Origin: Callorhinchus milii
Lineage: Eukaryota
Length of the DNA stretch: 64,000 nt
Direction: 5' to 3'
NCBI RefSeq assembly: GCF_018977255.1
Contig: NW_024704742.1
Span: forward strand, 30,010,001 to 30,074,000
The notes beneath the pieces were generated by a model that did not search any database, was not told the DNA's origin, and saw only the letters and a program-made list of their open reading frames with translations. The position numbers were made by a program, and so were the translations under genes. Each line of letters opens with the position of its first letter. Position 1 is the first letter of the stretch. Below are positions 4,974 through 59,446 of the stretch, piece by piece.

Positions 4974-5287
4974 GCAGTCCTGTAGCTCAGTGGTTAGAGC
5001 ACTCGCTTTGCAAGCTAGAGACCTGAGTTCAATTCCAGGCAGAGGGCGAAACCTTGGGCAAGTTTCCTTACTCCACACGCCTAATAATAATCCCTCAAAA
5101 AAACAAAACAATAATAAAATTGGTCATTTTCAATCTACGACTGTTTGTGGGACATTGCTGTGCGCAATTGGCTGCCGCGTTCGCCCACAAATATACAGTC
5201 AATTCACCTTACAGCATATTCTGTGAAGTGCTTTGAGACATCTAGAAGACGTGAAAAGTGCTATATCAAATGCAAGGATTATTATTA
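4974..5287 (+). mobile_element. tRNA-Ala-derived SINE, short subfamily, L2-type tail
   Basis: Head GTCCTGTAGCTCAGTGGTTAGAGC (A box) ... GTTCAATTCC (B box), anticodon loop TTTGCAA; tail ...AAATGCAAGGATTATTATT. Confidence 0.9.
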
Positions 5288-8840: not shown

Positions 8841-9269
8841 TGTGTGTCTTTCTCTCTCCCCTGTGCTGCTGTGTGTGCCTGTTGCTGTCTGTCTGGTTCG
8901 CACAGAAAGGCTGTGTCCAGAGAGTAACTTTCTCTGCCCCCCCATTTCAACTTTACTCCACACTTGGGCTCATTGCCTCTTGACTCTCCTCGCTGGTCCC
9001 TGGTGGCTTGTTTTACTGTCAACTGTGCTTAGATTTTCGATGCAAATAACCAGAACAGTCTGCGTCGTTAGGAATAATACAGTATTGCGGTGTATCTGCA
9101 TTCCTAAAGCAACATGTCCTGTGGATTTGTTGCGGTACATACAGTATATTTACTGAGTGAGTGAAGAGAAAATGTTGAAGAGCCACCTAGCGGTACATCC
9201 TGTGCAGTTCAACATCTGTAACTGGTGAAACAAGCACTGTATTTACTTAAAATTGTCATCAAACTAGCA

Positions 9270-9929: not shown

Positions 9930-10434
9930 TCACCTTAGAGGGGCTGCAGCGTAGGGTCACTAGGTTGGTTCCTAGGATGAGGGGGTTGACCTACGAGGAA
10001 AGGTTGAGTAGACTATGCCTATATTCTCTAGAATATCGAAGAATTAGAGGTGATCTTATATAAACCTATAAGATTCTTAAGGGTCTTGACAGGGTAGGTA
10101 ATTTGAGACTGTTTCCCCGGTTGGAGAATCTAAAACTAGGGGTCATAGTCTCAGGATTAAAGGTCAGCCCTTTAGAACTGAGTTGAGAAAACATTTCTTC
10201 ACTCAGAGGGTAGTGAATTTATGGAATTCTCTACCCCAGAAGGCTGTGGATGTCAGTCATTGAACATATTCAAGACTGAGATCGGTAGATTTTTAAAAAC
10301 TAAAGGGATTAAGGGATATGGGGATAGGGCAGCTAAATGGAATTAGGTTAGAAGATCAGCCATGATCTTATTAAATGGCGGGGTGGGCTCGAGGGGCCGA
10401 ATGGCCTACTCCTCCTATTTCTTATGTTCTTAAG
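9930..10434 (+). mobile_element. CR1 LINE 3' end
   Basis: Encodes LEGLQRRVTRLVPRMRGLTYEERLSRL.LYSLEYRRIRGDL; 3'UTR GGGCCGAATGGCCTACTCC..TTCTTATGTTCTT. Confidence 0.9.
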
Positions 10435-17090: not shown

Positions 17091-17913
17091 ATGAAGGAAA
17101 ACAGATCTTATATGCTCCGAATTTGACATCCATTGAAGAGAGATAAGTATGACCAGATAGCTCTACGCCCATTCTCAGTGCAGGAGATTGTCTATGACAC
17201 TGGGGATCTAAAGCAGGAATCAACAAAATGCTTTGGCATGTATTGGAAGCCAAATATCACTTATCAGGATTGAAAAATCGCTTATTCTGGTTCAAAAATA
17301 CAATCGTTTTTGATGTCATTGTCAAAAGTAAAAGCTCAATTTGTTACGTGTGTTTGCGCTGAATATTGCGATTCCGTTTGCTGCAGTTCCGACCGCTCGG
17401 CTGTCAAGTCTTGAACGGGTCCCAAAACAATTTGGGCCATTCAACCCACGACTCTTTGGGGAACACTGCTGCGCTCAATCGGCTGCCATGCTTCCCCCCC
17501 ACAAAATATACAGCCAATCCACGCTGCGGTATATTTCTGTGAAGCGCCTTGAGACGTCTCAATGACGCGATACGGTGCTGTACCAAACGCAAGCGTCGTA
17601 TCATTTTGTTTGCCGAGCGGGTCGGCTCAGAAAAGGCTCGACGGCATAGTAATCATTCCCAGCTTGCGGTACAGAGCGCGTATATTTTTTTTTCTGGGCG
17701 AACGGGGTCCTTGGGGCGGATTCGATCACAATCGTTGACCAGAGTACCGATCCCCATCTTTATCCCTAATTGCAGCACCAACGCGAGGAGCTGTGTGGCT
17801 GGTGCTGTGTGTGCATAACAAACTGCTCACACAGACTGCACCAGCCATGCACTGACTGCAGCTGACACCCCCCCACCTCCCACCAAGAGGGGGCGCACGC
17901 GCACAGCGCCTGT

Positions 17914-17954
17914 CACTCACTCACTCACTCACTCACTCACTCACTCACTCACTC
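17914..17954. repeat. (CACT)n microsatellite in the ELMOD2 promoter
   Basis: About 10 perfect units. Confidence 0.95.
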
Positions 17955-17989
17955 GGCCGCGCACGCGCCCTCCGCTCTCCCGGTCTGGG

Positions 17990-18178
17990 CGGCACTGCTG
18001 CGCAGACTCGGCGGCGGCGGCGGCGGCGGCTTCCGGTAGCGGTTGGCGGAGCAACGAGCGGCGCGCGCAGAGGGACGGCGGCGCGAGGCGCTCGCGAGAG
18101 CAACGGGTCGGGTCCCCCCGCGAGTCACGGGCGAGCAGCGGAGTTGATTTGAATCGTCGCGGTGGGTGTTGACAGAGG
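17990..18178 (+). other. ELMOD2: Probable non-coding exon 1 of ELMOD2 (start approximate)
   Basis: Lies in the CpG island and ends at a candidate donor GAGG|GTAACC. The ATG exon at 21821 has an acceptor 3 nt before the ATG, so an upstream exon is required. Confidence 0.5.
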
Positions 18179-18469
18179 GTAACCGTCGCCGTGTGCTGTT
18201 GGCGCGCGCGCGCGTGGTGTGTGTGTGTGTGTGTGTGCGTGAGATGGTTGGTCAGCGACACCTGAGTAACTGTCACTGTCAGTAACAGCCTTCGCTGTGC
18301 TGACTGAATGGCCGCCGTCACTGCGGGTGGGTGACCGACTGACTGACTGACTGTGCTGAATGGCCGCCGTCACTGCGGGTGGGTGACTGTCCGGCTGATG
18401 GTCCGTGTTTATGAGCTAATCTGTCGTGAGAAAACTCGCCTCCGAGTTAGAGGATTGTGAGTTGGAGCC

Positions 18470-24719: not shown

Positions 24720-27467
24720 ATGCGCTATCATGTTAATGTCTCTTAAGTGCTTAACAAATAATTGTCTAATGTAATGGCTGTTTTTATTAGCAAGTATTAT
24801 AACAGTACTTTTTTTGTCCATCTTCTAAGACTACATTTTTGTGAATAAAGCTATGTGGTTTTAGCTGGTTAGATTTCAGCAGTATCCCAACGCACACTCT
24901 GGGGTCCTCAAGCCTTAGCTCTTGCCAACCTGCACCTAATATTTTCCAGAATGGTGTAAGAAGGATGTGTCCCTCCAGGGAGAGAGTGCGCTTCCATTCC
25001 AACAATCTATCTCTGGAATTTCCATGTGTAGGTGGGATGCATGGAAATCTCAACTTAGTTAGGACACTCCTAAGCATAGTAATGGGTTTCTACATGTGTC
25101 AGATACCCGGCTGAACAAAAACATTTGAGAATAAAAAAATAAATTGTTGGCAATGTGTTTGTTCTTGAATGTTTGTGAATTTGGGTTTTTTCTGTGCTTA
25201 AAGTAGGGCTACTTAATTGCGTATGAGATTTTGTTCACTGTAAATGGGGAAAAAATGTAAGCAATGCTTACAAATTGTGCTTGGCTGATGAACACAAAGT
25301 AAACATTCAAGATTGTTCATTTTCAAACAAAAGTATAGCACTCTCATCCCTATTAATAGTATTGTGTAGCTTCTGTTTGCGAAAGTATAAAAATTCCACT
25401 GAATGGTTAGAATGAGAATTTTTAAAACAAATTTGATAATGAAAGAAAAGATTTTTTCTGGTAAAAAAAAAAGTTGTCCAGATGAGTACTGGCTAACATA
25501 AATCCCCTTAGCCAGTGAAAAATGCAGTACTATGTTTAGACATTTTCTCTTCCATTTTTGGGGGGTTTCCAGGTTTATGGATGGATAAACTGCTCCTGGA
25601 TGTCTGGAAGTACTCAGTATATGAAAATGTGCTCAAGAACAAGAGAAGTCCAGACTTACTAAGACATCACTCCTTACATTAATGGCACATGCTTTATGTG
25701 GCTCACAATTTTATTGTAGTGTTTTTTTCCCCTTCCCTCTAACTACCTTTCCTCTCATGAAAGTGCTGAATCTGTGGCATTCTCTTCCACACGTACTAGG
25801 CAACCTCTGGTATTTTACTTGTGTGGGCATTCATCAATGTGAGCCTGTGAGCTTTTTAGCCATAGGGTGCATCAGAACCAAGCTTAAACCTGTCCGAACT
25901 TAACATCCACATACAGCACATCTTCCAGCAGAGGTCTCTGGATCAATTGGGAATGCAGGCTGTGATTTTGTAGCCCAAGGTGCAAATGCTTTACTTTGTG
26001 CCATCCAAAATCAGCCAACTCAACACAAACCAGGATTGAACCAGAGAACTTCTGTGTATCGCTTGTTCCACACGAGACAATGGCTGTACCACTAAAGCAA
26101 TTTGGGTGACTTAACAAAAACATTTGTCAGCAAAGCTTTTAACAGAACACTGCATATTTACAGCTGGTGTATTGATTGCTTAGAACAATTGTGAATCCAT
26201 AATAAAACAAAGTTGAAATATTGTAGTTATATAGGTGAAAAATAGCTGAGTTGAAGATGTTCCCATTTGATATTTAATAAAACGTGATGTATTGAGTGAT
26301 GCAAGTGGAAATCTGAATCAGATGTCATCTAAGCCACAGGAGCAATGAATGGTAGGCCAGAACCAGTATAGAAAAGTCTTCAGAAGGAATTTGAGGGAAC
26401 TCTGAATAGCAGTATGTTAGGGTCACATGATTTTCTATCAATGTGGTGCACAGGATTACTAGATAGTTTAATTTACAAGCTTTTCTTTCAGCAATAATAA
26501 AAATAATAATCCTTGCATTTGATATAGCGCCTTATGTCGTTGAGACGTCTCAAAGTGCTTCACAGAATATACTGTAAAGTGAATTGACTGGATATTCTGT
26601 GGGTGAAAAGCTTTGGTAGTAAAATGTTTGCAATCTATGCCTGCCCATGTTCATAATACAGCATGGGTATGGTCAGTGGCCTGCTTAAGCAGATGCATGC
26701 TCTTCTAGGCAACACTCAAGGATGACAGGAGAGAATATCAAGAAGGATCATGGTGGCTGACCTTATAGTATTGCTTTTAAGTAGGTTCTGCAGAGAGTTC
26801 CAGCAACAAATGACCACTCTTCCTGCTCAGATGCTTACTGTAGATTCCCATCCCCTGACAGCAGGTGTCAGTTACTGTATCAATTCCTCTCCAACTTCTT
26901 GCCCACATCTCACAAAGTCCTTTTGATTCCTTCTCTTCCTTGCATGAGTGATCTAACCTGGCATTTTATTATTTTATGGGTATTAGTGCTCGCAATAGCT
27001 TGTGGGCAGCTGATGAACTATATTTGGCTGGTTAGCTTCTCTTCCCGATCACTTCTCACAATCAATTAAGGGCTCTGGGACACTATATTGCATGAGAGGC
27101 ATTATATAAATACAAATTGTTGTAGCAATGGCTTCTCACTCATTTTTACATACTTTACCAGAATACTTTCATTTATTACGTATTTGCCTGTTACTGCTGA
27201 CCCTGGTCCTTGTTTCCTAATAGAAATTGTAATCTTCCAAAAGTTTAATTTCAAAGACTGAACAAAATTGAGTAATGCTCGGTTAACATTTTGGCTTTAG
27301 TCTTAGGTCACCTCAGACAGCCTTGAAACCGAACTATGTTCTATTTGAGTAAAGGAATCGGTGTCTGGCTTTGAAATGTTATTCTGTATGCACTGGTTAT
27401 TTCATTATCTTGTATGGATTTTATGGCAAAGAGCCATAATTCTAATTATATGTTTCGTAATTTTCAG

Positions 27468-27601
27468 CTATGGAATATACTGATGCCTCGTATACACCTG
27501 GAGTCTAGAATCACCAAGCAATGGAGTGACATTGGTTTCCAAGGCGATGACCCAAAAACTGACTTCAGAGGCATGGGAATGCTAGGGTTATACAATCTAG
27601 T
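27468..27601 (+). CDS. ELMOD2: ELMOD2 coding exon 5 (ELMO domain with the GAP motif)
   Basis: LWNILMPRIHLESRITKQWSDIGFQGDDPKTDFRGMGMLGLYNLV contains the WxxxGFQxxxPxTDFRGxGxL motif; canonical splice sites. Confidence 0.98.
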
Positions 27602-28336
27602 GTAAGTTTACGTAACTTTTTACAGTGGTAATACCTGGCAAATAACTCAACGTGTTAGTTTCAAATATCCTAAATGTGACAAATAGTTTCAGATGACTCA
27701 CCTTTTCAACAAAATACACTTTAAAATACTTGATAAGTACATCTGTGTATCTGACCTAGAAAACTGCTTGGATACCAGTCTACCAAGACATTAGCAGTAC
27801 TCATATGTCTTTTGACCTTGATGTCTCGTGCTCTAGAATTTGGTCCGTGTAAGTTTTCCCCACTTTTCTTTATTTGTTATATTTATATTTATTTCTATTT
27901 TTATTTGTTGTTTTGTTTGCACTCGTGATGTGATCGTGTTTTGTAAGTGCCGTATACATAGGTTTTTGAAAGGAACGGTTCTGAAGCGCTCTGAGATGCT
28001 GTCTGGCATGGAGGGCGCTAGTTGTTGTATTAGTTACAAATTTATTTAATGTTTTAATCAGTTTCATCAGTAAAAGAAACGTTAGTAATGTAAGTCTTGT
28101 TTACTTGGGGATAGCTCCCACTGTGACTCTTATTAAAGGCACTGCCTATTGTGTAAATGAGCCATGTGGATCTGGAAAGTGCCAGTTTTGACTCCAGGTC
28201 TATGTTGAGTTAGCTGAGTTGGGGTGTGCACAAGTAAAGTGCAAGATGTCTATTGTCTAACTTTCTTAAATAGATATTTTAAACCATTAAATCTTAACAG
28301 ACTTCAGTTAATGTACTGTAATTAAAATCCCCTTAG

Positions 28337-28405
28337 ATACTTTGGTGAACATTACACAGAAGTGGCTCGTCAAATCCTTTCTCATTCAAATCACCCCAAA
28401 ATAGG
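28337..28405 (+). CDS. ELMOD2: ELMOD2 coding exon 6
   Basis: cttag|A; YFGEHYTEVARQILSHSNHPKIG; donor gtaagt. Confidence 0.96.
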
Positions 28406-29540
28406 GTAAGTACAAAGTGTGTTGTATTTAATACTTTCTCATTCAAATGTAGAAAAGTGGTGCCTTTCACTGACCGGCTCAAATTTTGGTGATTAAACCA
28501 TTCAGTATTTCAACATTTCCGACTTATGGATAAGAATTTACAGTGAAATATCTTGATATAAAATTTTAATTATGTACATAATAGCTATTTTGGGATCATC
28601 AAAAATCCAAAAGACTCATTTATTTGTTTTAAAGCTAGGAAGTTTCAATAATATAGCATCACTACCATCATAACACTTATTTCAATACTTATTTCTTGTG
28701 ACCATCCTAATACTTTAAAGTACTAATAATCCTTACATTTGATATAGCAGCTTTCTCATCAGGAGGATGTCTCAAAGCACTTCACAGCAGTGTATGCTGG
28801 AAAGTACAGTTGACTGTTTTTGTGGGCAATTTTAAATAATTGAATCAGTTATTCAGCGCAATGTATGTGACTTTTAATTGAGGAAAACTAACTTCATTTC
28901 AAAATTGGCATAATTATATCCAATCCAGAGTGGATGCTAATATATTTTGTAAAATTCTGCCATTACAATAACCTTAAAAATGTTTAATTAGTCATCAAAT
29001 GCTTTGGCTAATGGGTTCAATAGGCATTATTTCTATTCATTCCCTGATACCAGTAGAATTAGCTATTTGCTAAAATCTTGCAAAGATATACATACAGTTT
29101 TGTACACTGTGCTGCACAACTTGAAGTGTTTTCCCCTCCATAGCCAGTAATTGAAAAAGCTAGGATAACCTTCTAACAGCACACGCACTGCCAGATTAGT
29201 TTGAAGTATTAGTTTCCATAAAACAAACTGGTATTGTTTTGACTGCCCTGATATGTCACCAGAGTCTCAGAATATCAGTGTGTACTCAAAACGGCATCTC
29301 TGGAGAGCAAGATATACTAATAAAGTGCGAGATGTCTCTTGACGGATAGGAGAGATTTGTTTTAAAAATACAGTATCTCCGGCCTTTCATTCTACTTTAA
29401 GATGATCTCAGCTTCTGTATACTATTATGTTTTATACAATTTCTTGCAGTATTTCATAAGCACAGGAATATAATTTGCTGTGTAAATTTATTGTTTAATG
29501 TTGTTCCTTACATTTGTTTATGATGTGCTCTATGTTCCAG

Positions 29541-29674
29541 ATATTCCTATGCTATAGTTGGAATAAATCTCACTGAAATGGCTTACAGCTTGCTGAAGAG
29601 TGGTGCACTAAAGGCTCATTTCTATAACCTGGTCCCTGGAGTTCCTCAGATGCATCATTTTCATCAGTTTTATT
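29541..29674 (+). CDS. ELMOD2: ELMOD2 coding exon 7
   Basis: ttccag|A; YSYAIVGINLTEMAYSLLKSGALKAHFYNLVPGVPQMHHFHQFY; donor gtgagt. Confidence 0.97.
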
Positions 29675-30564
29675 GTGAGTGCTTTAAAATGTTCCCATTC
29701 AGAGTCTTAATTTATTCTATACTAAACACATTATTTTCAGTCATTTGATGGGATTGATTTTGATTTGCCTATAAAGAAACAGGATTAGGCAATTAAGCTC
29801 CTTGAGCTGTTCTGCCATTTTATAAGATTATGGCTGATCTGTACCTTAAGTCCAGTTACCTGCCTTGCCCCATATCCCTAAATATGAAAATCACTGAAAA
29901 TTTTCATGTTTCAAATGTTCATTTTGTTCTGTTTACTCCAAACTTGTTTTTTTGTATCATAGGATGATATGTGGCAACGCTAATGTTGAAAAGAATAGGA
30001 GAGAGTTTGAAAAGTAGGGGAGAGGGGAAAACAACTCAGAGGATGGTTAGATGATGCCAAGCTTTAAAAGACTGTGGGTTATATGAGGAAAGGAAGACTG
30101 ATGGTGTTACTAATAATATAATAATAATCTTTACATTTGGTATAGCACCTCATCATTTAATTGAGATGTCTCAAAGGGCTTCACAGAATATACTGTAAAG
30201 TGAATTCACTGTATATTTTCTGGATTAAACTAATTTTATATTTTAGGAGTGTTAAGGAATTAAATAATAATTGTTTGAACACGCATCCAAGTATTTGCTC
30301 AGAAATGACAAAATAACACTTGTTTATTTACTGCATATTACTGTAACGTGAGTACTGACCTCCCGACGTGAAAGGCACTATACAAAAGTAATTTTGTAAA
30401 GTTGTTGTTGTAACAATGACCTGAGGTAGTCGTCTACTCGCTTGGGTACAATTATTGTAAATATTTAGATCTTCAAGACATATACTCGATTTTTTTTAAA
30501 TGGCAGAGTGAAGAAAAAGCCTTATGTACCCAAGTTTTGATCAATATTGATTTGTTTCTTTCAG

Positions 30565-30716
30565 GTTACCTGATGTACGAGTTTGATAAATTTTGGTTCA
30601 AAGAAGAGCCACAAAGCATCATGGAATTCAACCAATACAGAGAGCAATTCCATGAAAGAGTAAAAGAATTGTTGAAAGATCCCAAGGCAATGCTTACTCT
30701 GGAATTCAATAAATAA
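30565..30716 (+). CDS. ELMOD2: ELMOD2 last coding exon
   Basis: ttcag|GT; (C)YLMYEFDKFWFKEEPQSIMEFNQYREQFHERVKELLKDPKAMLTLEFNK*; total CDS 891 nt = 296 aa plus stop. Confidence 0.97.
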
Positions 30717-32453
30717 ACAGTAGCAAATACATTCAGTATAACCAAGATAGAACGTGATACCAAGCAGAAGATGTTGGAAGAACACTGTTGATGAGGTCGT
30801 TTCACGTCTTTTTAAAAATATTTTATTAGTAAAGAGTGATGCAAGATTATGTGACTCCAATTCAGGATAAAGAGATTTTCGGTATAGGTACTATTGAAAT
30901 TGCATTTCAGATTTATTTGTATTTAATGGTATAAATATGGATCATAATATTCAAATATAGTACAGGTATTTTGCAATTTTGTTTCATTATTAAAAGAAGA
31001 GTGTGCTTATGGGCCATTAAAATATATATTTCAGTAGAATGAATTTTAGCAGATTCTGACGTTTTCCTGTGGAGAACAACTTGTGGCTGAATAATCCATT
31101 AAATGCTTATTGCAAATTTATTTTTCTGTTAGCGCACAGACAATCAGAAACTCGTAAAGTTGTAATTTGTTTTAATATTATCATCCAGTGACATGACAGA
31201 TCATTGTCAAGGAAGAAAATAATGCAGTGTTACCAGGGAGTAATCTTATTGAAGAGTTAACAACTGATATTTGAACTTTGATTAGATTACTTTCTGCATT
31301 CTTTTGTGGAGAGCTGTGTGGAAGTTGTTACTGACATGTATCCTGGTAGGTGTCAGCTAGGATTTTCCTTGTGGTTGATTTTTCTATGATTGTCATCTGA
31401 AAATCTTATCAAGCAGTCACAAAATCTAATCTCTTGTACACTAACTAATTAATTTCAAAAAAGTTTGTGATCTTACTTATTCAACAGTCCAATTTTAGGA
31501 CACATGAGATATTTTTAAATTGTCAATGATATATGATGGGTTACTTGATAAATTTGCAGACTGCAGTACAAATAATCCTTCAATGTGGATACTGCCTTCA
31601 GCTACAGAGCTGAGGCCACACTATTCACAATGCTAATAGCATTCTTTCAGTTCATCATGTACATGCAACTGGAGTTATCTTTGTACTACATTGTGTAAAG
31701 TTTATATTTTGTAGAATACAATCAAACCTGTTTTCAGCAACCATTTAGGGGACTGGACTAAAGTGGCCTTTATATAAAGGTGGCCTCTGAGTAAGGGTTC
31801 GTTGTTGAGTGTAGTCCAAGTGTATAGAAAAGTGCAGGTCACAATCAAACCCACAATCAGAACTATTTTTAATAAAGTAATAAATCAATTACAAAATACA
31901 AATGGTTACGGTTTCTGGGGGGCCAAAATTTCCACAGGCCCAAACGTAGACACCGCTGGACTCCTAGTACGTACCAATACTGTGCTGAGCAGCCCACCAG
32001 GTCTGATCTGGTCATTGAAACGTGGGTCAGTAGTGACAGGACTAAATAAGAGTAGCCATTGATTGCATCAGACAGGTGGTTGGTGAATAGAGAGTTGTTT
32101 TCACAGGTTTGATTGTATTGCTAACAATTGGCAATAAATTCCAGCACCTTCCTGCACAATGGGGAATTAACAAATTGGCTGAAATTACATTTGTAATCTT
32201 GGAGCATTCACCTAAATTGGGATTATATGAATGGTGAAAACTTGCTAATTTTTTTGTCTGAAGTGAGATAAGGAAAAAAGCAGTCCTTTTGAAGTCAAAT
32301 TTCATACCTCACTCAAGAAGTAAGGAGGAACATGTTTGTTTTCTATATTCTTATCTTGCTTCCTGTTGAGTATTGCTCATTACATGGTCAGCGATGTGAT
32401 ATTTTGTATTTATTACACGTTTAGTCTGGTTAAAACATTTGTTACTGTAAATT

Positions 32454-34062: not shown

Positions 34063-34389
34063 ATAATAATAATAATAATAATCCTTGCATTTGATATAGC
34101 GCTTTTCACGTCGGGAGGACGTCCCAAAGCGCTTCACAGAACACACTGTAAAGTGAATTGACTGTATATTTGTGGGCGAACGCGGCAGCCAATTGCGCAC
34201 AGCAATGTCCCACAAACAGTCGTAGATTGAAAATGACCAATTTATTATTGTTTTTGGTTTTGGAGGGATTATTATTAGCCTCTGTGTGGGAGTAAGGAAA
34301 CTTGCCCAAGGTTTCGCCCTGTGCCTGGAATTGAACTCAGGTCTCTCGCTTGCAAAGCGAGTGCTCTAACCACTGAGCTACAGGACTCC
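34063..34389 (-). mobile_element. tRNA-Ala-derived SINE, young, with TSD TAGGATA
   Basis: Full head to (ATT)n tail; TAGGATA at 34059-34065 and 34394-34400. Confidence 0.93.
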
Positions 34390-35927: not shown

Positions 35928-36332
35928 TACTTCATGAAGCTTATAGCTATAAATTTATATAAACGGATTTATATTAGAATGGAACTGTCCATTGGAAGCA
36001 ATTGATTTTGTCCAGGAACAAACTGAAATTAATATTGCAGAATATAGGAATAGGACCAGACTGAGATGAAAAATTACTTCATTAAACACATTAATTCATA
36101 ACCCTGAGAACAATAGATCATTGGTTATTGTGAAACATCGCTTTCCATTCTTAAATGCTCTTATGCATGTTCGCTGTTCACTAATCCTCATGTTAAATAG
36201 TTTTCTTAAATATTGGAATTCCTTGTCAGACATGACCATATTTCTACCAGTTCTCAATGTCCACAACTGAGGCAGATTTAATGGTGCAGAGAAGTAGCTT
36301 GCATTTTGATGTTCCCTTTTTCATCCAAGGAA

Positions 36333-36447
36333 TCATGTGGTACAGTCCACAGTTTGTCTAGTCATCATCATTGCCCTTTTCAGTTGTTCATAAGACACAA
36401 ACATTATCACATTCCATGAGCCAAGGCGTAGATAAGAAGGAACAAAC
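36333..36447 (-). CDS. UCP1: UCP1 last coding exon
   Basis: [37 protein letters not shown]; total CDS 939 nt = 312 aa plus stop. Confidence 0.96.
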
Positions 36448-36851
36448 CTAAAATAGAAATGAATATTATATTAGGCCTACCACCTCCAGACAATAGATTA
36501 TCACACCTTGTCAGTGAGTTGCACCATTCAAGTATGCAAGACTATTTGTGTAAATACCATGTACCATCGTTTGAATTGTATTACAGGAACACTCCTCAAC
36601 TCAAGAAAGCCTGTGAATCTTGTAAATTCTTTTTAAATAAACAAAATAAAATATTTTTTTTAAAAATTGTGGTTCAATGTAGGTTTCCAAAATTTTTAGT
36701 GAAGTCTGATACTAAAAATCACCTTTAATTTTAGATTTGGCAAAATGTATCGAGTCTATCAAGCTTAAAATTGTCGGACTGGATTGAATGTACTGTACAT
36801 GTAAATACACAGTACTGCTGTTTAAATTGGGGGAGTGGGGGGTGCACTTAC

Positions 36852-37032
36852 CCTTTGTAGAAGGCTGTGGGTCCTTCTTTAATCAGCATGGTCCAGGCGC
36901 AATTGAGTGCGCTCTTATACTGTCCAGGTGAAGAGTTCATGTATCTTGTCTTTACAACATCAACAGGAGAAGCTATCACCGTGGTGCAAAATCCTGCACC
37001 GAAGGCTGACAGGAAGTGACAGGGCAAATTAT
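36852..37032 (-). CDS. UCP1: UCP1 coding exon 5
   Basis: [61 protein letters not shown]; 181 nt; donor GTAAGT. Confidence 0.97.
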
Positions 37033-37261
37033 CTGCAATTTAAATAAAAGGACTTATCAACTGGAAACGTGTTCAATTGATGGCACGGAATTAGCTACAT
37101 GCATGTTTATTTTAGTGAGGCGCTATATTGATATTAATAAAAGTGTGAACAGAATTGTTTGAGTGGATGTTTTTCTAACTGATTGGAAACATATTTACGC
37201 TCTACAAGATAAGTGCCTCAGAGAAAATGGGAATGATTATATGGTCAAACATTCCAGGAAC

Positions 37262-38060
37262 AATCTAGCCAGGTGGCTCTCTTGCCTAAGGATCAGAAGG
37301 TTGAGAGTTCAAGACCCACATCAAGACTTTGAACTCAGTCTAGGCTGACACAGACAGTGTAGTGCTGGGGGAGTGCTGCAGTATCGGAGATGCTATTCTG
37401 GGATTGAGACGTTAAACCAAGGGAGACATTAAAGATAATAATCCTTGCATTTGATATAGTGCCTTACCATCATTGTGTCTCAAAGTCCTTCATAGGATCT
37501 ACTGTAAGGTGTAGTGATTGCATATTTGTAGGCAAATGTGTCAGTCAATTTGCACATAGCAATGACCAAAAAATAGCCATGAGGTGAATGACCAATTATA
37601 TCTTAAGGATTGTTGGCCAATGATACAGGTTGAAATTCTCTTGTCTTCAATTGGCAGGTAGTACTTTGATTTAACATTTCATCTGAAGAACAGTACTTCT
37701 GACAATGCAGTGCTTCCACACCATTGTATTGGAGTGCCAGCCTCGACTGTAAATTCAAAGCTGCTGATATGAGTCTTGAATCTACAGTGTTACTGACTGA
37801 GCCAGGATATCAACAGGTCCCATGGCACTGTTCAAAAAGACAAAGGAGTTTTCTTCTGGTGTCCAAGCCAAAGATCCTCCAGATAATATTGGTCAATACA
37901 CTCTGTGGCTATGTATAGAAAATTGCTGTGTACAAATTGGCTGCTGTGTTTGCCTCCAAATACAATCAATATACTTTACTGAAAAGATTTTGAAGTATTT
38001 TGAGATGTTATAGGCACTACTTTAAATGCAAGGAATATTATTACAATTATTATTATTATT
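37262..38060 (+). mobile_element. DeuSINE containing a nested inverted DeuSINE (about 37435-37806)
   Basis: Outer copy breaks at AAAGA and resumes TCCCATGGCACTG at about 37819. Confidence 0.75.
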
Positions 38061-38064
38061 ACAA

Positions 38065-38445
38065 AAGCATTTCACATAACTCACTGCAAAGTGTAGTGTC
38101 TATTTTCTAGGCAAATGTGACAGCCAATTTGCACATAGCAATGTCCTACAAACAACCATGAAGTGAATGACCAATTTTATTAGGGGAAATTTGCACAATT
38201 TGATTGCACCAGGAGAAACTCCCTTCATTTTTCAAGCAGTGCCATAATAATTTTTATGTCCACTTGAATAGGTACATAAAACCTTGGTTTAACATCTTGT
38301 CTGAAGGATGGCACCTCCAACAATGCAGGCCACCCCCCAGCACTGTATTGCAGTGTCAATCTAGACAGTGAGTACAAAGTCTCGATGTGGGGTTCAAACC
38401 CACAACCATCTGTCGTACAGGTGAAAGCACTACCAAATGACACAG
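38065..38445 (-). mobile_element. DeuSINE copy
   Basis: Reverse Deu domain (GGAGGTGCCATCCTTCAGACAAGATGTTAAACCAAGG). Confidence 0.75.
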
Positions 38446-39057
38446 GAATGTCAAAGGGTACTCAATTTGATATATATATATACATATATATTTTAAAAAG
38501 CATCAATGTTAATGTCAAATTAAAAAATAGTGAAATATTTGGAAGCACAACCAGAATATATGATACTAACATTGACTCTGATTTGCTTATCCTCCTTGGG
38601 GGTGTGGGGAAGGTAAGCAGGGCCTCCTTGGAGCTGAACTGGCTCCAGGGTGACATGTTTGGCAATGGAATGAGCCAGGTGTCTCCACAGTACTCCAGGC
38701 CACTGCTGATGATAGCACAGGCAGCCTGGCTCATCGGCAGGACTTGTCGCTGGGGGCAGGGAATCCTCCCACTCAGCTCCTGTTAACCCTGTAAGCCCAA
38801 ACCCTAATGGGAAGGATGGTCTTAGCTGGACAAGCAGCGGGAAAGCTTGCCAGACAGGTCCCATCCAATTCCAATATAAGTTGCGGCTTCCATTTGTTAG
38901 CAGGTTCCATTTATGTTTGTCCTTTCTCTATGTAAAGCATTTTGAGACATTTTTCTACTTGGAAAACACTATATAAGTACAAGTTGGTGTTGTTCCAAAG
39001 CTCCCTGCAAGAAGTAAACTAGAAGTTAAACAAATGATATTGTGGTCGCCAGCATAC

Positions 39058-39159
39058 CTGTCATTAGCTTATTCTTCAGGATGGTATCCTTAATGATGTC
39101 GTAAGTTACAAGTTCTGAACAGTTAACAATGGCGTTTCGAGTAATGTTAGGGAAAGTTC
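39058..39159 (-). CDS. UCP1: UCP1 coding exon 4
   Basis: [34 protein letters not shown]; 102 nt, after a 106-bp intron. Confidence 0.97.
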
Positions 39160-39265
39160 CTGAGGAGAGACAGAGGTCGTTGCGATTAATGTGCTAGTAA
39201 TTGAAATATTACCAATTCAGGATGAGTCAGACTGATCTACGTTGCACATATACTGGACAAAGTAC

Positions 39266-39463
39266 CTTTCCAGAGTCCTCTCACTCCCTCCTCTTTGGCA
39301 ATAGTTCTATATGCCTGAAGTGTGCTACTGTATCGTTTCTGAGCACCGCTTAAGCTCTTATGTGCTTGGAAACGAACTTTCACTACATCCGTGGGTTGAG
39401 CCAATGCCACGGCGAGTCCTCCCGTGGTGCATCCCGCCAAGATTCGTGTACCAATGCTGGCAT
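39266..39463 (-). CDS. UCP1: UCP1 coding exon 3
   Basis: CCTCCAG|(H)[65 protein letters not shown](G); 198 nt. Confidence 0.97.
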
Positions 39464-39846
39464 CTGGAGGGAAAGCGGCAGGAAAAATAAATACTATGTC
39501 CCGAAGCAAGTCATCAGATCTCATTCATCATTCCGTTTACCACTGTCAACCTGACCATTATTAATTATCAATAGCTACAATTATTAATTATCCATGCCTG
39601 CTTTCTGCGTTTCAAAATGAAAGAAACATAGAACAAAGCTAGAACTAGAATACTTGTGCTGTCCTTGTTTTTATCCTAGAATGGTTTCAAAATACTGTAC
39701 AAGGTATTTCACAATTTACTTACAAAGCAGCCCAGCTCCCATAGTAAGTCAATCTTTCAAATACTATCTGCATTGCTGTGCACTGAAACACTTTGCTTCA
39801 AAATACACAATAAGTAAAATGATTCAATGTCTAGATTATTACTTAC

Positions 39847-40063
39847 GGTCATTGCCTCTTGTGTAAAATTGCTTTACGGAGTCATAAAGCCCAATTCTTA
39901 TGGAAGCAAAGCTCATCTGCCTTTGAAGCCCGGCCACCAGTCCACTGTACAGACTCCTTGGCCCCTCTGTTTTGATCATTGTGGTGATAGTCCCCAGAAC
40001 CCCATGATATCTTATACTTTTGCCAGTCACCGCTATTTGTGCTCCTTTCACTTCTCCTTGAAT
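39847..40063 (-). CDS. UCP1: UCP1 coding exon 2
   Basis: [78 protein letters not shown]; donor C|GTAAGT. Confidence 0.97.
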
Positions 40064-40440: not shown

Positions 40441-40767
40441 ATAATAATAATAATAATAATAATCCTTGCATTTGATATAGCACTTTTCACGTCGGGAGGA
40501 CGTCCCAAAGCGCTTCACAGAACATACTGCAAAGTGAATTGACTGTATATTTGTGGGCGAACGCGGCAGCCAATTGCGCACAGCAATGTCCCACAAACAG
40601 TCGTAGATTGAAAATGACCAATTTATTATTGTTTTTTTTTGGAGGGATTATTATTAGGCTCTGTGTGGAGTAAGGAAACTTGCCCAAGGTTTCGCCCTCT
40701 GCCTGGAATTGAACCCAGGTCTCTCGCTTGCAAAGCGAGTGCTCTAACCACTGAGCTACAGGACTCC
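40441..40767 (-). mobile_element. tRNA-Ala-derived SINE, young, sense-oriented in a UCP1 intron
   Basis: Full-length copy with an intact CTCGC-TTTGCAA-GCGAG anticodon arm; starts about 46 nt after the donor of coding exon 1. Confidence 0.93.
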
Positions 40768-40813: not shown

Positions 40814-40939
40814 CTGTAACCTGACTTTGGCTGTGTCCAGGGGGAATGTGATGAGATCTGCGATACAGGCAGCAGTCCCAGCACTCAGGAACTGCACTCC
40901 TGGGGTGGGAGGCAAATTGGATGGCTTTAACCCCACCAT
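40814..40939 (-). CDS. UCP1: UCP1 coding exon 1 (exon starts at the acceptor at 40975)
   Basis: [42 protein letters not shown]; 126 nt; carrier signature PLDTAKVR; donor CAG|GTAACA; upstream acceptor TTTTTCAG|. Confidence 0.96.
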
Positions 40940-41059
40940 CCTGGCTGTCACAGGCAAGAAACTCTGGGCGAGGGTCTGAAAAACACAACACATCACAAGA
41001 CGTGAGAAACACGAGCGATCATCATCATTACTGGTCGTATCAAAGCCCCTGGATCAAGG

Positions 41060-42767
41060 CAGGTAGTCAGGCAGTCAGGTAGTCAGGTAGTTAGTCAGGC
41101 AGTCAGTCAGGTAGTCAGGTAGTTAGTCAGTCAGTCAGGTAGTCAGGTAGTTAGTCAGTCAGTCAGGTAGTCAGGTAGTTAGTCAGGCAGTCAGTCAGGT
41201 AGTCAGGTAGTCAGTCAGTCAGTCAGGTAGTCAGTCAGTCAGTCAGTCAGTCAGTCAGGTAGTCAGTCAGTCAGTCAGTCAGTCAGTCAGGTAGTCAGTC
41301 AGTCAGTCAGGTAGTCAGTCAGTCAGTCAGTCAGTCAGGTAGTCAGTCAGTCAGTCAGTCAGTCAGGTAGTCAGTCAGTCAGTCAGTCAGGTAGTCAGGT
41401 AGTCAGTCAGTCAGTCAGGTAGTCAGTCAGTCAGTCAGTCAGTCAGTCAGTCAGTCAGTCAGTCAGTCAGTCAGTCAGTTAGTCAGTCAGTCAGTCAAGT
41501 CAGTCAGTCAGTCAGTCAGTTAGTCAGTCAGTCAGTCAGTAGTCAGTCAGTCAGTCAGTTAGTCAGTCAGTCAGGTAGTCAGTAGTCAGTCAGTCAGTCA
41601 GTCAGTCAGTCAGTCAGTCAGTCAGTCAGTCAGGTAGTCAGTCAGTCAGTCAGGTAGTCAGTCAGTCAGGTAGTCAGTCAGTCAGTCAGTCAGTCAGTCA
41701 GTCAGTCAGTCAGTCAGTCAGTCAGTCAGTCAGTCAGGTAGTCAGTCAGTCAGTCAGTCAGGTAGTCAGGTAGTCAGTCAGTCAGTCAGTCAGTCAGGTA
41801 GTCAGTCAGTCAGTCAGGCAGTCAGTCAGTCAGTCAGGTAGTCAGTCAGTCAGTCAGGTAGTCAGTCAGTCAGTCAGTCAGTCAGTCAGTCAGTCAGTCA
41901 GTCAGGTAGTCAGTCAGTCAGTCAGTCAGTCAGTCAGTAGTCAGTCAGTCAGTAGTCAGTCAGTCAGTAGTCAGTCAGTCAGGTAGTCAGTCAGTCAGGT
42001 AGTCAGTCAGTCAGTCAGTCAGTCAGTCAGGTAGTCAGTCAGTCAGGTAGTCAGGTAGTTAGTCAGTCAGTCAGGTAGTCAGGTAGTCAGTCAGTCAGGT
42101 AGTCAGGTAGTCAGTCAGTCAGGTAGTCAGTCAGTCAGTCAGGTAGTCAGTCAGTCAGGTAGTCAGTCAGTCAGTCAGGTAGTCAGTCAGTCAGTCAGTC
42201 AGTCAGGTAGTCAGTCAGGTAGTCAGTCAGTTAGTCAGGTAGTCAGTCAGTCAGTCAGGTAGTCAGGTAGTCAGTCAGTCAGTCAGTCAGGTAGTCAGGC
42301 AGTCAGTCAGTCAGGTAGTTAGTCAGTCAGTCAGGTAGTCAGGTAGTCAGGCAGTCAGTCAGTCAGTCAGGTAGTCAGTCAGTCAGGTAGTCAGTCAGGC
42401 AGTCAGTCAGATAGTCAGGTAGTTAGTCAGGTAGTCAGTCAGGTAGTTAGTCAGTCAGTCAGGTAGTCAGTCAGTCAGGTAGTCAGTCAGTCAGGTAGTC
42501 AGGTAGTCAGGCAGTCAGTCAGTCAGGTAGTCAGTCAGTCAGGTAGTCAGGTAGTCAGTCAGTCAGGTAGTCAGGTAGTCAGTCAGTCAGGTAGTCAGGT
42601 AGTCAGTCAGTCAGTCAGGTAGTCAGTCAGTCAGGTAGTCAGTCAGTCAGGTAGTCAGTCAGTCAGTCAGGTTGTCAGGTAGTCAGGTAGTCAGTCAGGC
42701 AGTCAGTCAGGTAGTCAGGTAGTCAGTCAGTCAGTCAGGTAGTCAGGTAGTTAGTCAGTCAGTCAGG
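41060..42767. repeat. ~1.7-kb (AGTC)n satellite with AGGT/AGTT/AGGC variants in UCP1 intron 1
   Basis: Directly visible tetranucleotide array. Confidence 0.99.
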
Positions 42768-43327
42768 CCATCTGAGTTGCAGGTTTCACTGGATCCAAAC
42801 ACTTGCTGTGAGAGAGAGAGCCACACACATGTGTTCTGCTCCTCTGCATCGCGTTGGTTTTAATCACTGCGCACAACGATTTCCAGCTCCAGAGAGAGAG
42901 TCCCTCCCGGACCCCAAATTCCCTTTCACTCTCCCCCACACCCCCCACTTTGCATCCTTCAGACACCCAGTCTGCGCCTGTGGGGGGAGACTTGTTCCCC
43001 TGTGTGCGCAGCGTTTGGAAGTGGCAGCGAACACCGGGAAACGTTGCACTGCGAGTGAAGGAGCGACACCCAAAACGCACGGATCGGATCGCTGCCGTTT
43101 TAGCAAAACCGGTTAAAAAAAAAGTAGCAGTTGCATCGCAGCTTTGCAGCGAAGCTTTTGCTGAACAAACACAATAGGGCTCTTCAGTGCAAAACGGAAA
43201 CGATATCACTAATCCGCCGAAACTTGATTTTTTTTCCCCCCAAAAAAAATAAGAGCGGATGATGGATAGTACTGGTGTGTGTCTCAAAACTATCTCGAGT
43301 GGGGAATGAGTCAGAGTCCCCACTTAC

Positions 43328-43462
43328 AACGTGAACCAAACCCACTGATGGGTCAGTGAGAGGTGATTATGTCCAAGTGATTCTTCCAATGCCCTCCAGG
43401 CCTCGTTCCTTCTGCTTTCTCCCCTTCCAGGTCTGTTCTTACTCGATCCTGGAGAGCTCGAT
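43328..43462 (-). other. UCP1: Predicted non-coding exon 1 of UCP1 (TSS approximate)
   Basis: Begins about 28 nt downstream of TATAAAAG and ends at a strong donor GTT|GTAAGTG; contains no ATG. Confidence 0.65.
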
Positions 43463-43482
43463 CCTCCTGAACGATTGCATTA

Positions 43483-43490
43483 CTTTTATA
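43483..43490 (-). promoter_or_regulatory. TATA box of UCP1
   Basis: TATAAAAG on the minus strand, correctly placed upstream of the donor-terminated exon. Confidence 0.7.
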
Positions 43491-43506
43491 CCTGTTCTGA
43501 TTTATG

Positions 43507-43515
43507 TGATGCAAT
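43507..43515 (+). promoter_or_regulatory. C/EBP-ATF response element (CARE/AARE) TGATGCAAT
   Basis: Exact match to the ATF4 amino-acid response element (reverse complement ATTGCATCA), 16 bp upstream of the TATA box. Confidence 0.55.
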
Positions 43516-44560
43516 GCAACGAGGGGCAGTCTCTGAGCCTTCAGGGGTAGGCGTTTCTGAGTTAAGGAGGTGTGCACAAACCAAGACACACACACTCTCA
43601 CACACACACACACACACACAGCCCTCTGTCCACACCAAGCAATCTGTTTGCTTCCAAGTGAAGGATTTTTGGATGCAATTTCAAATCAGAAACTCACTGC
43701 TCACCTAATACTTCGACAGTCGTTTGACTTATCAGTGCCTACTGCCTTACAGGAAGCTTTCTTTCTCTTTTACCACTGGAAAGAGTGGCCAGATCTTGTG
43801 CAATAATAATAATAATAATAATCCATATATTTATATTTAATATAACAGCTTTCATTTGGGGCGGACGTCTCAATTGCTTCACAAAATTGCCCATAAATAT
43901 AGTCAGTTCGCTTTACAATGTGTTCTTTGAAGCACTTTGAGACATCTCAACAATGTGATAAGGCGTTATATTAAATGCAAAGGTTATTATTATTGAAATA
44001 TACTGTAAAGTCTATCAAATATGTATTTTGTGGGTGAAAGCGGCAGTCAATTTGTACCACAGCATTGTCCCACAAACGGCCACGAAGTGAATAACCAGTC
44101 TTAATTGGAAGATTGTTGTCCAAGACTTCTCGCAAACAGCGCATTGCATTTTAAATCTTCTATGTATGGCTTACAGCAGGTAACCCAGAGCCCAAGTTGG
44201 TCTTCATCCTTCAACTACTATTATCTTTATATAACAAGAACAGTCAAGAAAGATACGTTATCTTAATCAAATTTATGATCTGCAAGGTGGACAATCCCTG
44301 TCTACCTAATTATTGGTGTATCATAAAGTGACTTTGGAACCTGTCAAAGTTCAAAGATTTTTCAAAAATAGAACTTTGACACAATTAGATAATTAGATCG
44401 CAATAGAAGGAAACACAGACATTATATATATATATATGAAGGAGGCAGTCAAAACAAAAGGAAATATCTAGCCATGCCCAGCAATGATGGCTGTTTGTGG
44501 AACACTATTGCGCACAAATTGATTGCCGCATTCGCCTACAAATACACAGTCACCACACTT

Positions 44561-57965: not shown

Positions 57966-59446
57966 CAAAACAACAACAAAATTACATTTATAGAACGCCT
58001 TTCATGTCAAGAAAGTGCTGAACAGTCAGGTGTCGGGGACCGAACATGGGGGAGGGGTGGTGTAAGGGTGAGCAAAGGCAGAGAGGTGTGAGGGTGACCA
58101 AAGGCACGATCGAAGAGAAGGGTCTTGGGTCCGGCCTTGAAGGAGGCAAGGGACGAAGCGAGGTGAAGGGACTGTGGGATGGAGTTCCAGAGTGTGGGGA
58201 CAGAGAGGCTGAAAGCCCGGCCACCAATGGTAGGGCGGGAGACACAGAGCAGACAGAGGGAGCGGGCAGGTTGGTAGGGAGTCAGCAGGTCAGAGAGGTA
58301 GGAGGGGGCAAGGCCATGGATGGCCTTGAAAGTGAGGACGAGGATTTTGAACGCGATCTTCTGGGAAATGGGGAGCCAGTGGAGTCGGGCGAGGGTGGGA
58401 GTGATGGGGTCACGGAGCCTGGTGCGCGAGAGCTCAGAGTTTTGGATGATCTGCAGCTTGTGAAGGGAAGAGTTGGGAAGGCCGATGAGGAGGGAGTTCC
58501 CATAATCGAGCCTTGATGTGACAAATGCGTGGGTGAGGGTTTGGGAGCCTGAGAGGTGAGGCAGTGGTAGAGTCTGGCAATATTGCAGAGGTGGTAGTAG
58601 GCAGTGCCGGTCATGGCGCGGATGTGGGGGAGAAAGGACGGTTCAGGGTCAAACAAGACACCCAGGTTCCTGACAGGGCTTAGTGAGGTTGAGTGTGCAG
58701 GCGTGGAGGTGCCTGAGGTGCAGAGGCGCTAATGCGAGCCAATCAGGAGGGCCTCAGTCTTGCTGACATTGAGTTGGAGAAAGTTGTCCCTCATCCAGGA
58801 CTTGATGTTGGACAGACAGTCGGTCAGGACGCCAGTCTTCCTGGAGTTCAGGGTGGAGGCAGTGAAATAGAATTAGGTGTCATCCGCATACATGCGGAAA
58901 TTTACCCCATGTTTGCAGATGATGTCACCAAGGGGGAGCATGTAGAGGGTGAAGAGGAGGGGACCGAGGGCAGAGCCCTGAGGAACACCACACAAGATGG
59001 TGCAGGGGCTGGAGAAGAAGCTGTTTGCTGCGACAAAGTGGAGGCGGTGTGAAAGGTAGGACCTGAACCAGTCACGGACAGAACCTTGAAGGTTGAGGTG
59101 GGAGGAGAGGCGGTGGAGGAGAATTGAGTGGTCCACAGTATCAAAGGCAGCAGAGAGGTCGAGGAGGCAGAGGGAGCCCTGGTCACACATGGTCAGGATG
59201 TTATTTGTGACCTTGACCAGATCAGTTTCCGTGCTGTGGGCAGCACAGAAGCCCGATTGAAGGGGTTCATGGAGGGAGTGGGAGGAAAGAGCGAAGCTGG
59301 AAGTCGTTGGCTCTCTCAAGGATCTTGGATAGGAAAGGGAGGTTTGAGATGGGCCGGTAGCTAGATAGCTGTGATGGGTCAACGGAAGGTTTCTTTAAAG
59401 TGGGGGTGATGATGGCTGTTTTGAGGCGGGAAGGAACAGAGCCAGA
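57966..59446 (-). mobile_element. L2 LINE fragment with a frameshifted reverse-transcriptase domain
   Basis: QSGF..AHSTET.LVKVTN, LDLSAAFDTVDH, GVPQGSALGPLLFTLYM and YADDT motifs; multiple frameshifts. Confidence 0.95.

Follow-up and report, generated by a model that had tools for sequence, protein, structure and literature searches.

A candidate ATF4:C/EBP element beside the TATA box of elephant shark UCP1

Organization of the locus

The window, that is, the whole 64-kb stretch of Callorhinchus milii DNA analyzed here, carries UCP1 on its minus strand (Table 1). Joined at GT/AG borders, six coding exons containing Mito_carr domains encode a product identical at 312 of 312 residues to XP_007895844.2, the Callorhinchus milii UCP1 isoform X2. 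A protein tree was constructed from 31 proteins, chosen from 130 fetched and with mammalian UCP1 left out, together with the window protein. The latter groups, with support 100/99, in a clade whose 11 rows carry the name UCP1, apart from UCP2 and UCP3, and its neighbours are the UCP1 proteins of shark, ray, coelacanth, lungfish and frog.

Gene order points the same way. The ELMOD2-like exons, lying tail-to-tail with UCP1, supply the UCP1-ELMOD2 part of the order TBC1D9-UCP1-ELMOD2, a UCP1 gene order with ELMOD2 as neighbour being described in PMC3428666 and PMC8572181. An ELMO_CED12 domain was found in two of three ELMOD2-like frames tested, and the exons are near-identical to sea bass ELMOD2 when compared by eye, the sea bass locus having the same layout. 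TBC1D9 end motifs had no match within the 64-kb window. Identity, tree and gene order together bear out the gene's initial annotation as UCP1, and they overrule a UCP2/UCP3 identity, which had arisen because a single exon scored mouse UCP2 above human UCP1 in PDB.

Table 1. Features of the UCP1 locus and promoter. Positions relative to the start take 43459 as +1.
Feature	Position in window	Strand	Remarks
ELMOD2-like 3' coding exons	27375..30716	+	Tail-to-tail with UCP1; synteny marker
Other five UCP1 coding exons	36331..40063	-	40063-39847, 39463-39266, 39159-39058, 37032-36852, 36447-36331
UCP1 exon 2 (coding exon 1)	40814..40975	-	36 nt leader, start codon at 40939
UCP1 intron 1	40976..43327	-	2352 nt, donor GTAAGT
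AGTC-type tandem array within UCP1 intron 1	41057..42766		1.7 kb, most of intron 1
UCP1 non-coding exon 1	43328..43459	-	132 nt, no ATG; 43328 joined to 40975 in 3/3 runs guessed to be RNA
Near-copy ATTGCATTA (TAATGCAAT on the gene's strand)	+43474-43482	-	-23..-15; abuts TATA box downstream
TATA box TATAAAAG	43490..43483	-	-31..-24; sole TATAAAAG in window
CARE/AARE 9-mer TGATGCAAT	43507..43515	+	ATTGCATCA on the gene's strand; -56..-48 from inferred start
ATGCAAC half-site	43514..43520	+	Overlaps upstream edge of CARE
FOXA-like TGTTTGC	43645..43651	+	-192..-186; common motif, 3.2 per kb
Third near-copy GGATGCAAT	43671..43679	+	-220..-212; one mismatch, in ATF half
GATA-like TGATAA	43729..43734	-	-275..-270; common motif, 2.3 per kb

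Several further features were recorded. The 330-residue RefSeq isoform X1 of UCP1 begins at an ATG at 40993, inside the end of intron 1; as the spliced leader bypasses this ATG, isoform X1 may be a retained intron or reflect a second start near 41000. Intron 1 also contains a CpG-rich patch (43001-43200, o/e 1.27), and a CpG island at 17500-18250 probably represents the ELMOD2 promoter. The window also contains a SINE-like family, 270 bp long and headed by a tRNA-like part, in dozens of full or partial copies, about 8.5 kb in total (e.g., 40444-40716, 34063-34338 and 5025-5287), and LINE remnants with reverse-transcriptase homology lie at 58876-59394.

A spliced non-coding first exon and a likely TATA promoter

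The TATA box lies 2.55 kb from the start codon, so that its link to the gene needed demonstrating. The stretch 42780-43580 is present in 7 of 24 listed sequencing runs, all from one organism and none on record as RNA. Contigs over this stretch were compared for the DNA-like run X1 and for X5, X6 and X7 (two studies), whose status as RNA is a guess from splicing alone; contig depth was not taken as expression level, and run X9, from organism B and with no words in common, was not included. The X5, X6 and X7 contigs depart from the window at 43328 and resume at 40975, in coding exon 1, which proves that UCP1 has a spliced non-coding first exon.

The X7 contig terminates at 43459, on a pyrimidine/purine step (C-1/G+1) and at a distance of 31 bases from the initial T of the TATA box; those of X5 and X6 end 30 bases short of it, at 43429 and 43430. 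Upstream of 43459 none of the three contigs guessed to be RNA provides coverage, and the X1 contig, which spans the whole stretch, differs from the window by four substitutions and three gaps, none of them in 43421-43580, leaving the CARE unchanged. These data weakly place the UCP1 start at 43459, about 30 bases past the TATA box, the evidence being modest because contigs cannot prove a start. The TATA box thus looks like the real UCP1 core promoter, with 43459 as its likely start site. The initial annotation had assigned this box to UCP1, and the start did not map elsewhere: the contig end, weak evidence as it is, fits the box.

This places the first exon and likely start of elephant shark UCP1 in a promoter built unlike the mammalian one. 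The chimaera and mammalian genes are orthologous and both have a TATA promoter, but in the chimaera the TATA box is separated from the ATG by a 2.35 kb intron in addition to a non-coding exon, while in mammals the distance from the TATA box to the exon 1 ATG is 200-290 bp and the UCP1 enhancer (CRE, PPRE, RARE) is eutherian only (PMC5611445). The term ATF is absent from the available text of that paper, and its supplements gave no promoter sequence matches.

Within exon 1, the window reads CT at 43419-43420 and all four compared runs read TC, which is either an assembly error or a rare allele.

A CARE sixteen bases upstream of the TATA box

A perfect CARE 9-mer had been reported 16 bp upstream of the UCP1 TATA box, and TGATGCAAT is indeed found at 43507-43515, with 16 bases between it and TATAAAAG. 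It fits the CARE consensus TGATGxAAx, and the CARE tested in SARS has this very sequence (PMC5175342); within 600 bp upstream of the UCP1 start it is the only consensus CARE. On the gene's strand its 9-bp core is identical to that of the human CHOP (DDIT3) AARE, ATTGCATCA, but the latter is located at -313..-295 and the candidate chimaera site at -56..-48 from the inferred start. In being directly upstream of the start it resembles the AAREs of ASNS (-72..-57) and ATF3 (-27..-12) (PMC1851658).

The initial annotation expected a given 9-mer once per 130 kb. Markov models of the window (orders 0-5) give once per 48-90 kb, so the motif is commoner than stated, and the exact 9-mer occurs twice. 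The second copy (32062-32070) lies about 1.3 kb beyond the final ELMOD2-like coding exon identified, between the converging 3' ends of the ELMOD2-like gene and UCP1. Nor is there an excess of the CARE family TGATGHAAH in the window, with 12 occurrences against a shuffle mean of 10.3 and 39 of 100 shuffles reaching 12. It is placement, not number, that exceeds chance. Before allowing for other noticeable motifs, the probability of a match within 100 bp is approximately 0.002 for the exact CARE and 0.015 for any consensus CARE, or 0.07 for the latter within 500 bp. In local dinucleotide shuffles of -250..-1, the exact 9-mer arose in 88 of 20,000 and a consensus CARE in 923 of 20,000. To this extent, the earlier description of the placement as notable holds good.

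The background rates, to which can be added that 2 of the 61 TATAWAWR strings in the window have a consensus CARE within 100 bp, favour the explanation that the promoter is real and the 9-mer an unselected match of no real consequence for UCP1 output. A site lacking both function and conservation would be an ordinary motif match. We regard a chance match as somewhat unlikely, given that the match is exact, not merely consensus, at a textbook distance from a contig-supported start, and accompanied by a cluster of ATTGCA half-sites; moreover, when ATF4 rises, a perfect match within an active promoter would probably become occupied, whether selected or not.

Repeat origin of 43340-43800, including a SINE tail as the source of TATA...ATGCAA, was considered and rejected, since self-BLAST and a SINE profile derived from 38 copies in the window gave no match, the exceptions in BLAST being a CA microsatellite and chance-level matches.

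Near-copies and half-sites around the core promoter

An inverted copy of the CARE with one mismatch had also been described immediately downstream of the TATA box. Both its place and the single mismatch are as described, but it is not a consensus CARE: in TAATGCAAT the C/EBP half is intact and the ATF half is broken (TAA for TGA), so that TGATGxAAx is not matched. A one-mismatch copy within 40 bp on either side has a probability of 0.04 (exact-based) to 0.19 (consensus-based). At most, the copy may constitute a weak C/EBP half-site. A hairpin or cruciform role for the inverted pair was ruled out, as it is one of nine similar short inverted repeats in 501 bp. The near-copy occupies the place of the ATF3 element, from which it differs in breaking the TGA of TGATGxAAx (PMC1851658).

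The motif ATGCAAT is common to the main site and to the near-copies at -23 and -220. In 210 bp of the UCP1 promoter ATGCAAT occurs three times and ATGCAA four times, the densest such cluster in the window outside SINEs. This clustering was reached by 0 (ATGCAAT) and 1 (ATGCAA) of 20,000 local shuffles in a post hoc test; as a control, some 7-mer occurs three times in 22 of 178 repeat-poor 250-bp tiles.

Such a cluster could also mean that the site is bound constitutively by C/EBP, or a related bZIP protein, for tissue expression, probably in liver, and has no stress role. All three near-CAREs share the C/EBP half, the ATF half being broken in two of them, and an ATTGCA cluster combined with TGTTTGC and TGATAA, which we take to be FOXA-like and GATA-like, would amount to a liver-type promoter. 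The main site, however, has an ATF half, TGATG, and departs from the C/EBP consensus TTRCNNAA, and by chance alone 2-3 FOXA and GATA motifs are expected per kb; on balance a purely constitutive role seems unlikely. It would be in keeping with the C/EBP-like ATGTGCAAT that, read by eye, adjoins a TATA-like box in the upstream region of sea bass UCP3, and with expression in fish, in which UCP1 is mainly hepatic in carp, where it drops in cold water (PMC5585156), and reaches high abundance in the liver of sea bream (PMC7227224, table).

The near-copy at -23..-15 overlaps the core promoter, which raises the further option of repression: UCP1 would be shut down in stress by ATF4:CHOP or ATF3 bound at -56, or else by a dimer within the TFIIB/TFIID footprint at -23..-15. 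In CoQ-deficient mouse brown adipocytes, the ISR does lower Ucp1 through ATF4 with CHOP, and ATF4 knock-down partly rescues expression (PMC10897314), although a review gives the opposite direction, with ATF4 promoting Ucp1 (PMC12964565). We nevertheless hold repression via these sites to be very improbable. The proximal CAREs described in PMC5175342 and PMC1851658 are activating, with ATF4-dependent recruitment of the initiation complex, and the near-copy fails the CARE consensus. In addition, because the mammalian promoter is differently built, with its TATA box close before the exon 1 ATG and its enhancer eutherian only (PMC5611445), the mouse ATF4 effect need not act via such a site.

Comparison with teleost UCP promoters

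The sea bass UCP1 and UCP3 loci (PMC3428666 supplement 1; parts 1, 7, 8, 9, 12 and 14 of 15) were read by eye, and a second teleost UCP1 locus, L032, was obtained from a metagenome scan. Sea bass UCP1 has a TATA-like TATAAATA at 9035..9028 and a donor-like site near 8897. No consensus CARE was seen within about 1.2 kb upstream of this TATAAATA in the available parts. Consensus CAREs do occur at 10318 and 11092, in 3.6 kb for which about 0.5 is expected at the window rate. L032 aligns by eye with the sea bass UCP1 first exon and has no CARE in the first-exon region or in the 30 bp present upstream of its TATA-like box. Hence neither of two teleost UCP1 promoters, their start sites being inferred, has a CARE at the place matching that of the chimaera, and in this respect the chimaera site also differs from the ASNS and ATF3 elements with which it was compared.

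The teleost promoters are like that of the chimaera in gene order, in an inferable TATA-like box and in a short non-coding first exon followed by a GT donor. They differ in lacking a proximal CARE, in not being alignable with the chimaera promoter and in their leaders, which share an upstream ATG frame, the chimaera leader having no ATG. When the chimaera promoter was compared with four teleost UCP loci, no convincing alignment was obtained: the best match with L032 was a TG-rich intron (3 of 200 shuffles), a CARE-centred match with L029 was reached by 17 of 200 shuffles, and the figures for L036 and L030 were 14 and 91 of 200. Of 63 metagenome loci, 24 were examined, and these included no UCP1 locus of another chimaera, shark, ray, gar, coelacanth or amphibian.

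Position conservation of the CARE across jawed vertebrates is thereby refuted, if only weakly, since the teleost starts are inferred and L032 could not be aligned to the promoter of the chimaera. The initial annotation had proposed that the 9-mer and its spacing be sought in other lineages; neither has a counterpart in the sea bass UCP1 or L032 promoters, and the element is probably lineage-specific, not ancestral. The absence from two teleosts also favours a chance match, as does UCP3: L029, a teleost UCP3 locus, carries two consensus CAREs in 347 bp before the ATG, the exact ATTGCATCA at 53-61 and TGATGTAAC at 267-275, with no match at the corresponding place in the parts of sea bass UCP3 read by eye, so that such matches arise easily.

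A conserved first-exon block was noted in sea bass UCP1 (approximately 8985-8915) and L032 (84-167), with a CCAAT box and an upstream ATG frame, MDYNLAN..., of 22 codons in sea bass (by eye) and, once the inferred splice is allowed for, 29 in L032. This could represent an upstream reading frame similar to that of UCP2 or, if the teleost start is further down, a promoter block.

Possible regulation of UCP1 by ATF4

A working, activating ATF4:C/EBP site at -56..-48 on the TATA promoter of elephant shark UCP1 is our preferred but tentative reading, somewhat short of an even chance; binding at the CARE, the direction of its effect and the tissue are predictions. C/EBP-family proteins on the ATTGCA half, of which four half-sites lie in -220..-15, would help to drive normal tissue expression. 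Under amino-acid shortage or ER or mitochondrial stress, phosphorylation of eIF2-alpha would lead to ATF4 being made; ATF4 and a C/EBP partner would then fill the full CARE, two helical turns from TBP, and raise UCP1 transcription, as at ASNS and ATF3.

For the activating site, the fit of the start to a TATA box at -31 and the exact CHOP/SARS core at an ASNS/ATF3-like distance are suggestive. Against it, an exact copy occurs at 32062 without a known promoter and ATF4 represses Ucp1 in mouse brown adipocytes (PMC10897314). If the prior that a gene is a proximal-CARE target is assumed to be 0.2-2%, and the chance that a target shows the exact motif within 100 bp to be 15-30%, the posterior for a working proximal CARE ranges from 0.13 to 0.75 and is about 0.4 at mid values. 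The half-site cluster raises its weight a little and the teleost absence lowers it.

In crucian carp muscle (not liver, and with no ATF4 link), the Ucp1 mesor is 0.35 in fed and 1.01 and 0.88 in fasted fish (source among PMC5712371, PMC1559616, PMC8572181, PMC4398389 and PMC6265890). Zebrafish fasting supplements had no matches for ucp1, ucp2, ucp3, asns, chac1 or uncoupling, and the PMC6889435 supplement gave none. In the literature, neither data on how the ISR might control UCP1 outside mammals nor, in titles and abstract openings, any CARE in a non-mammalian UCP1 promoter were found, most subscription journals and bioRxiv supplements being out of reach.

The CARE is a well-known element type, and a working one here would add a new target gene in one lineage. 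The role of UCP1 in ectotherms is described as open (PMC5611445); a working chimaera ATF4 site, if real, would tie non-thermogenic UCP1 to nutrient and mitochondrial stress. The initial annotation hinted at a pre-thermogenic role. Were such a role ancestral, pre-thermogenic UCP1 would have been a direct ATF4/ISR target, its transcription driven by a CARE-TATA promoter in front of a non-coding exon, a state kept in the chimaera. Teleosts would have moved the element (in sea bass about 1.3 kb upstream, in a CRE/nuclear-receptor/GATA-like cluster) or swapped to upstream-frame control, mammals would have shifted the promoter beside the coding exon, and the cAMP/PPAR enhancer would be a eutherian addition, ATF4 having become a repressor. 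On this view, UCP1 would have served as a metabolite carrier induced by stress. UCP2 exports four-carbon metabolites, an activity that would suit an ATF4 programme. As neither teleost has a matching CARE, the step to an ancestral role lacks comparative backing, and we consider such a role improbable.

Two minor observations concern the sea bass upstream regions. At 10277-10382, about 1.3 kb upstream, UCP1 has an enhancer-like cluster of what we take to be a CRE-like TGACGTGA, a nuclear-receptor-like repeat, a GATA motif, the consensus CARE TTTGCATCA and a C/EBP-like site. The 12-mer TTTGCATCACAC of this cluster recurs about 3.2 kb upstream of the TATA-like box of sea bass UCP3.
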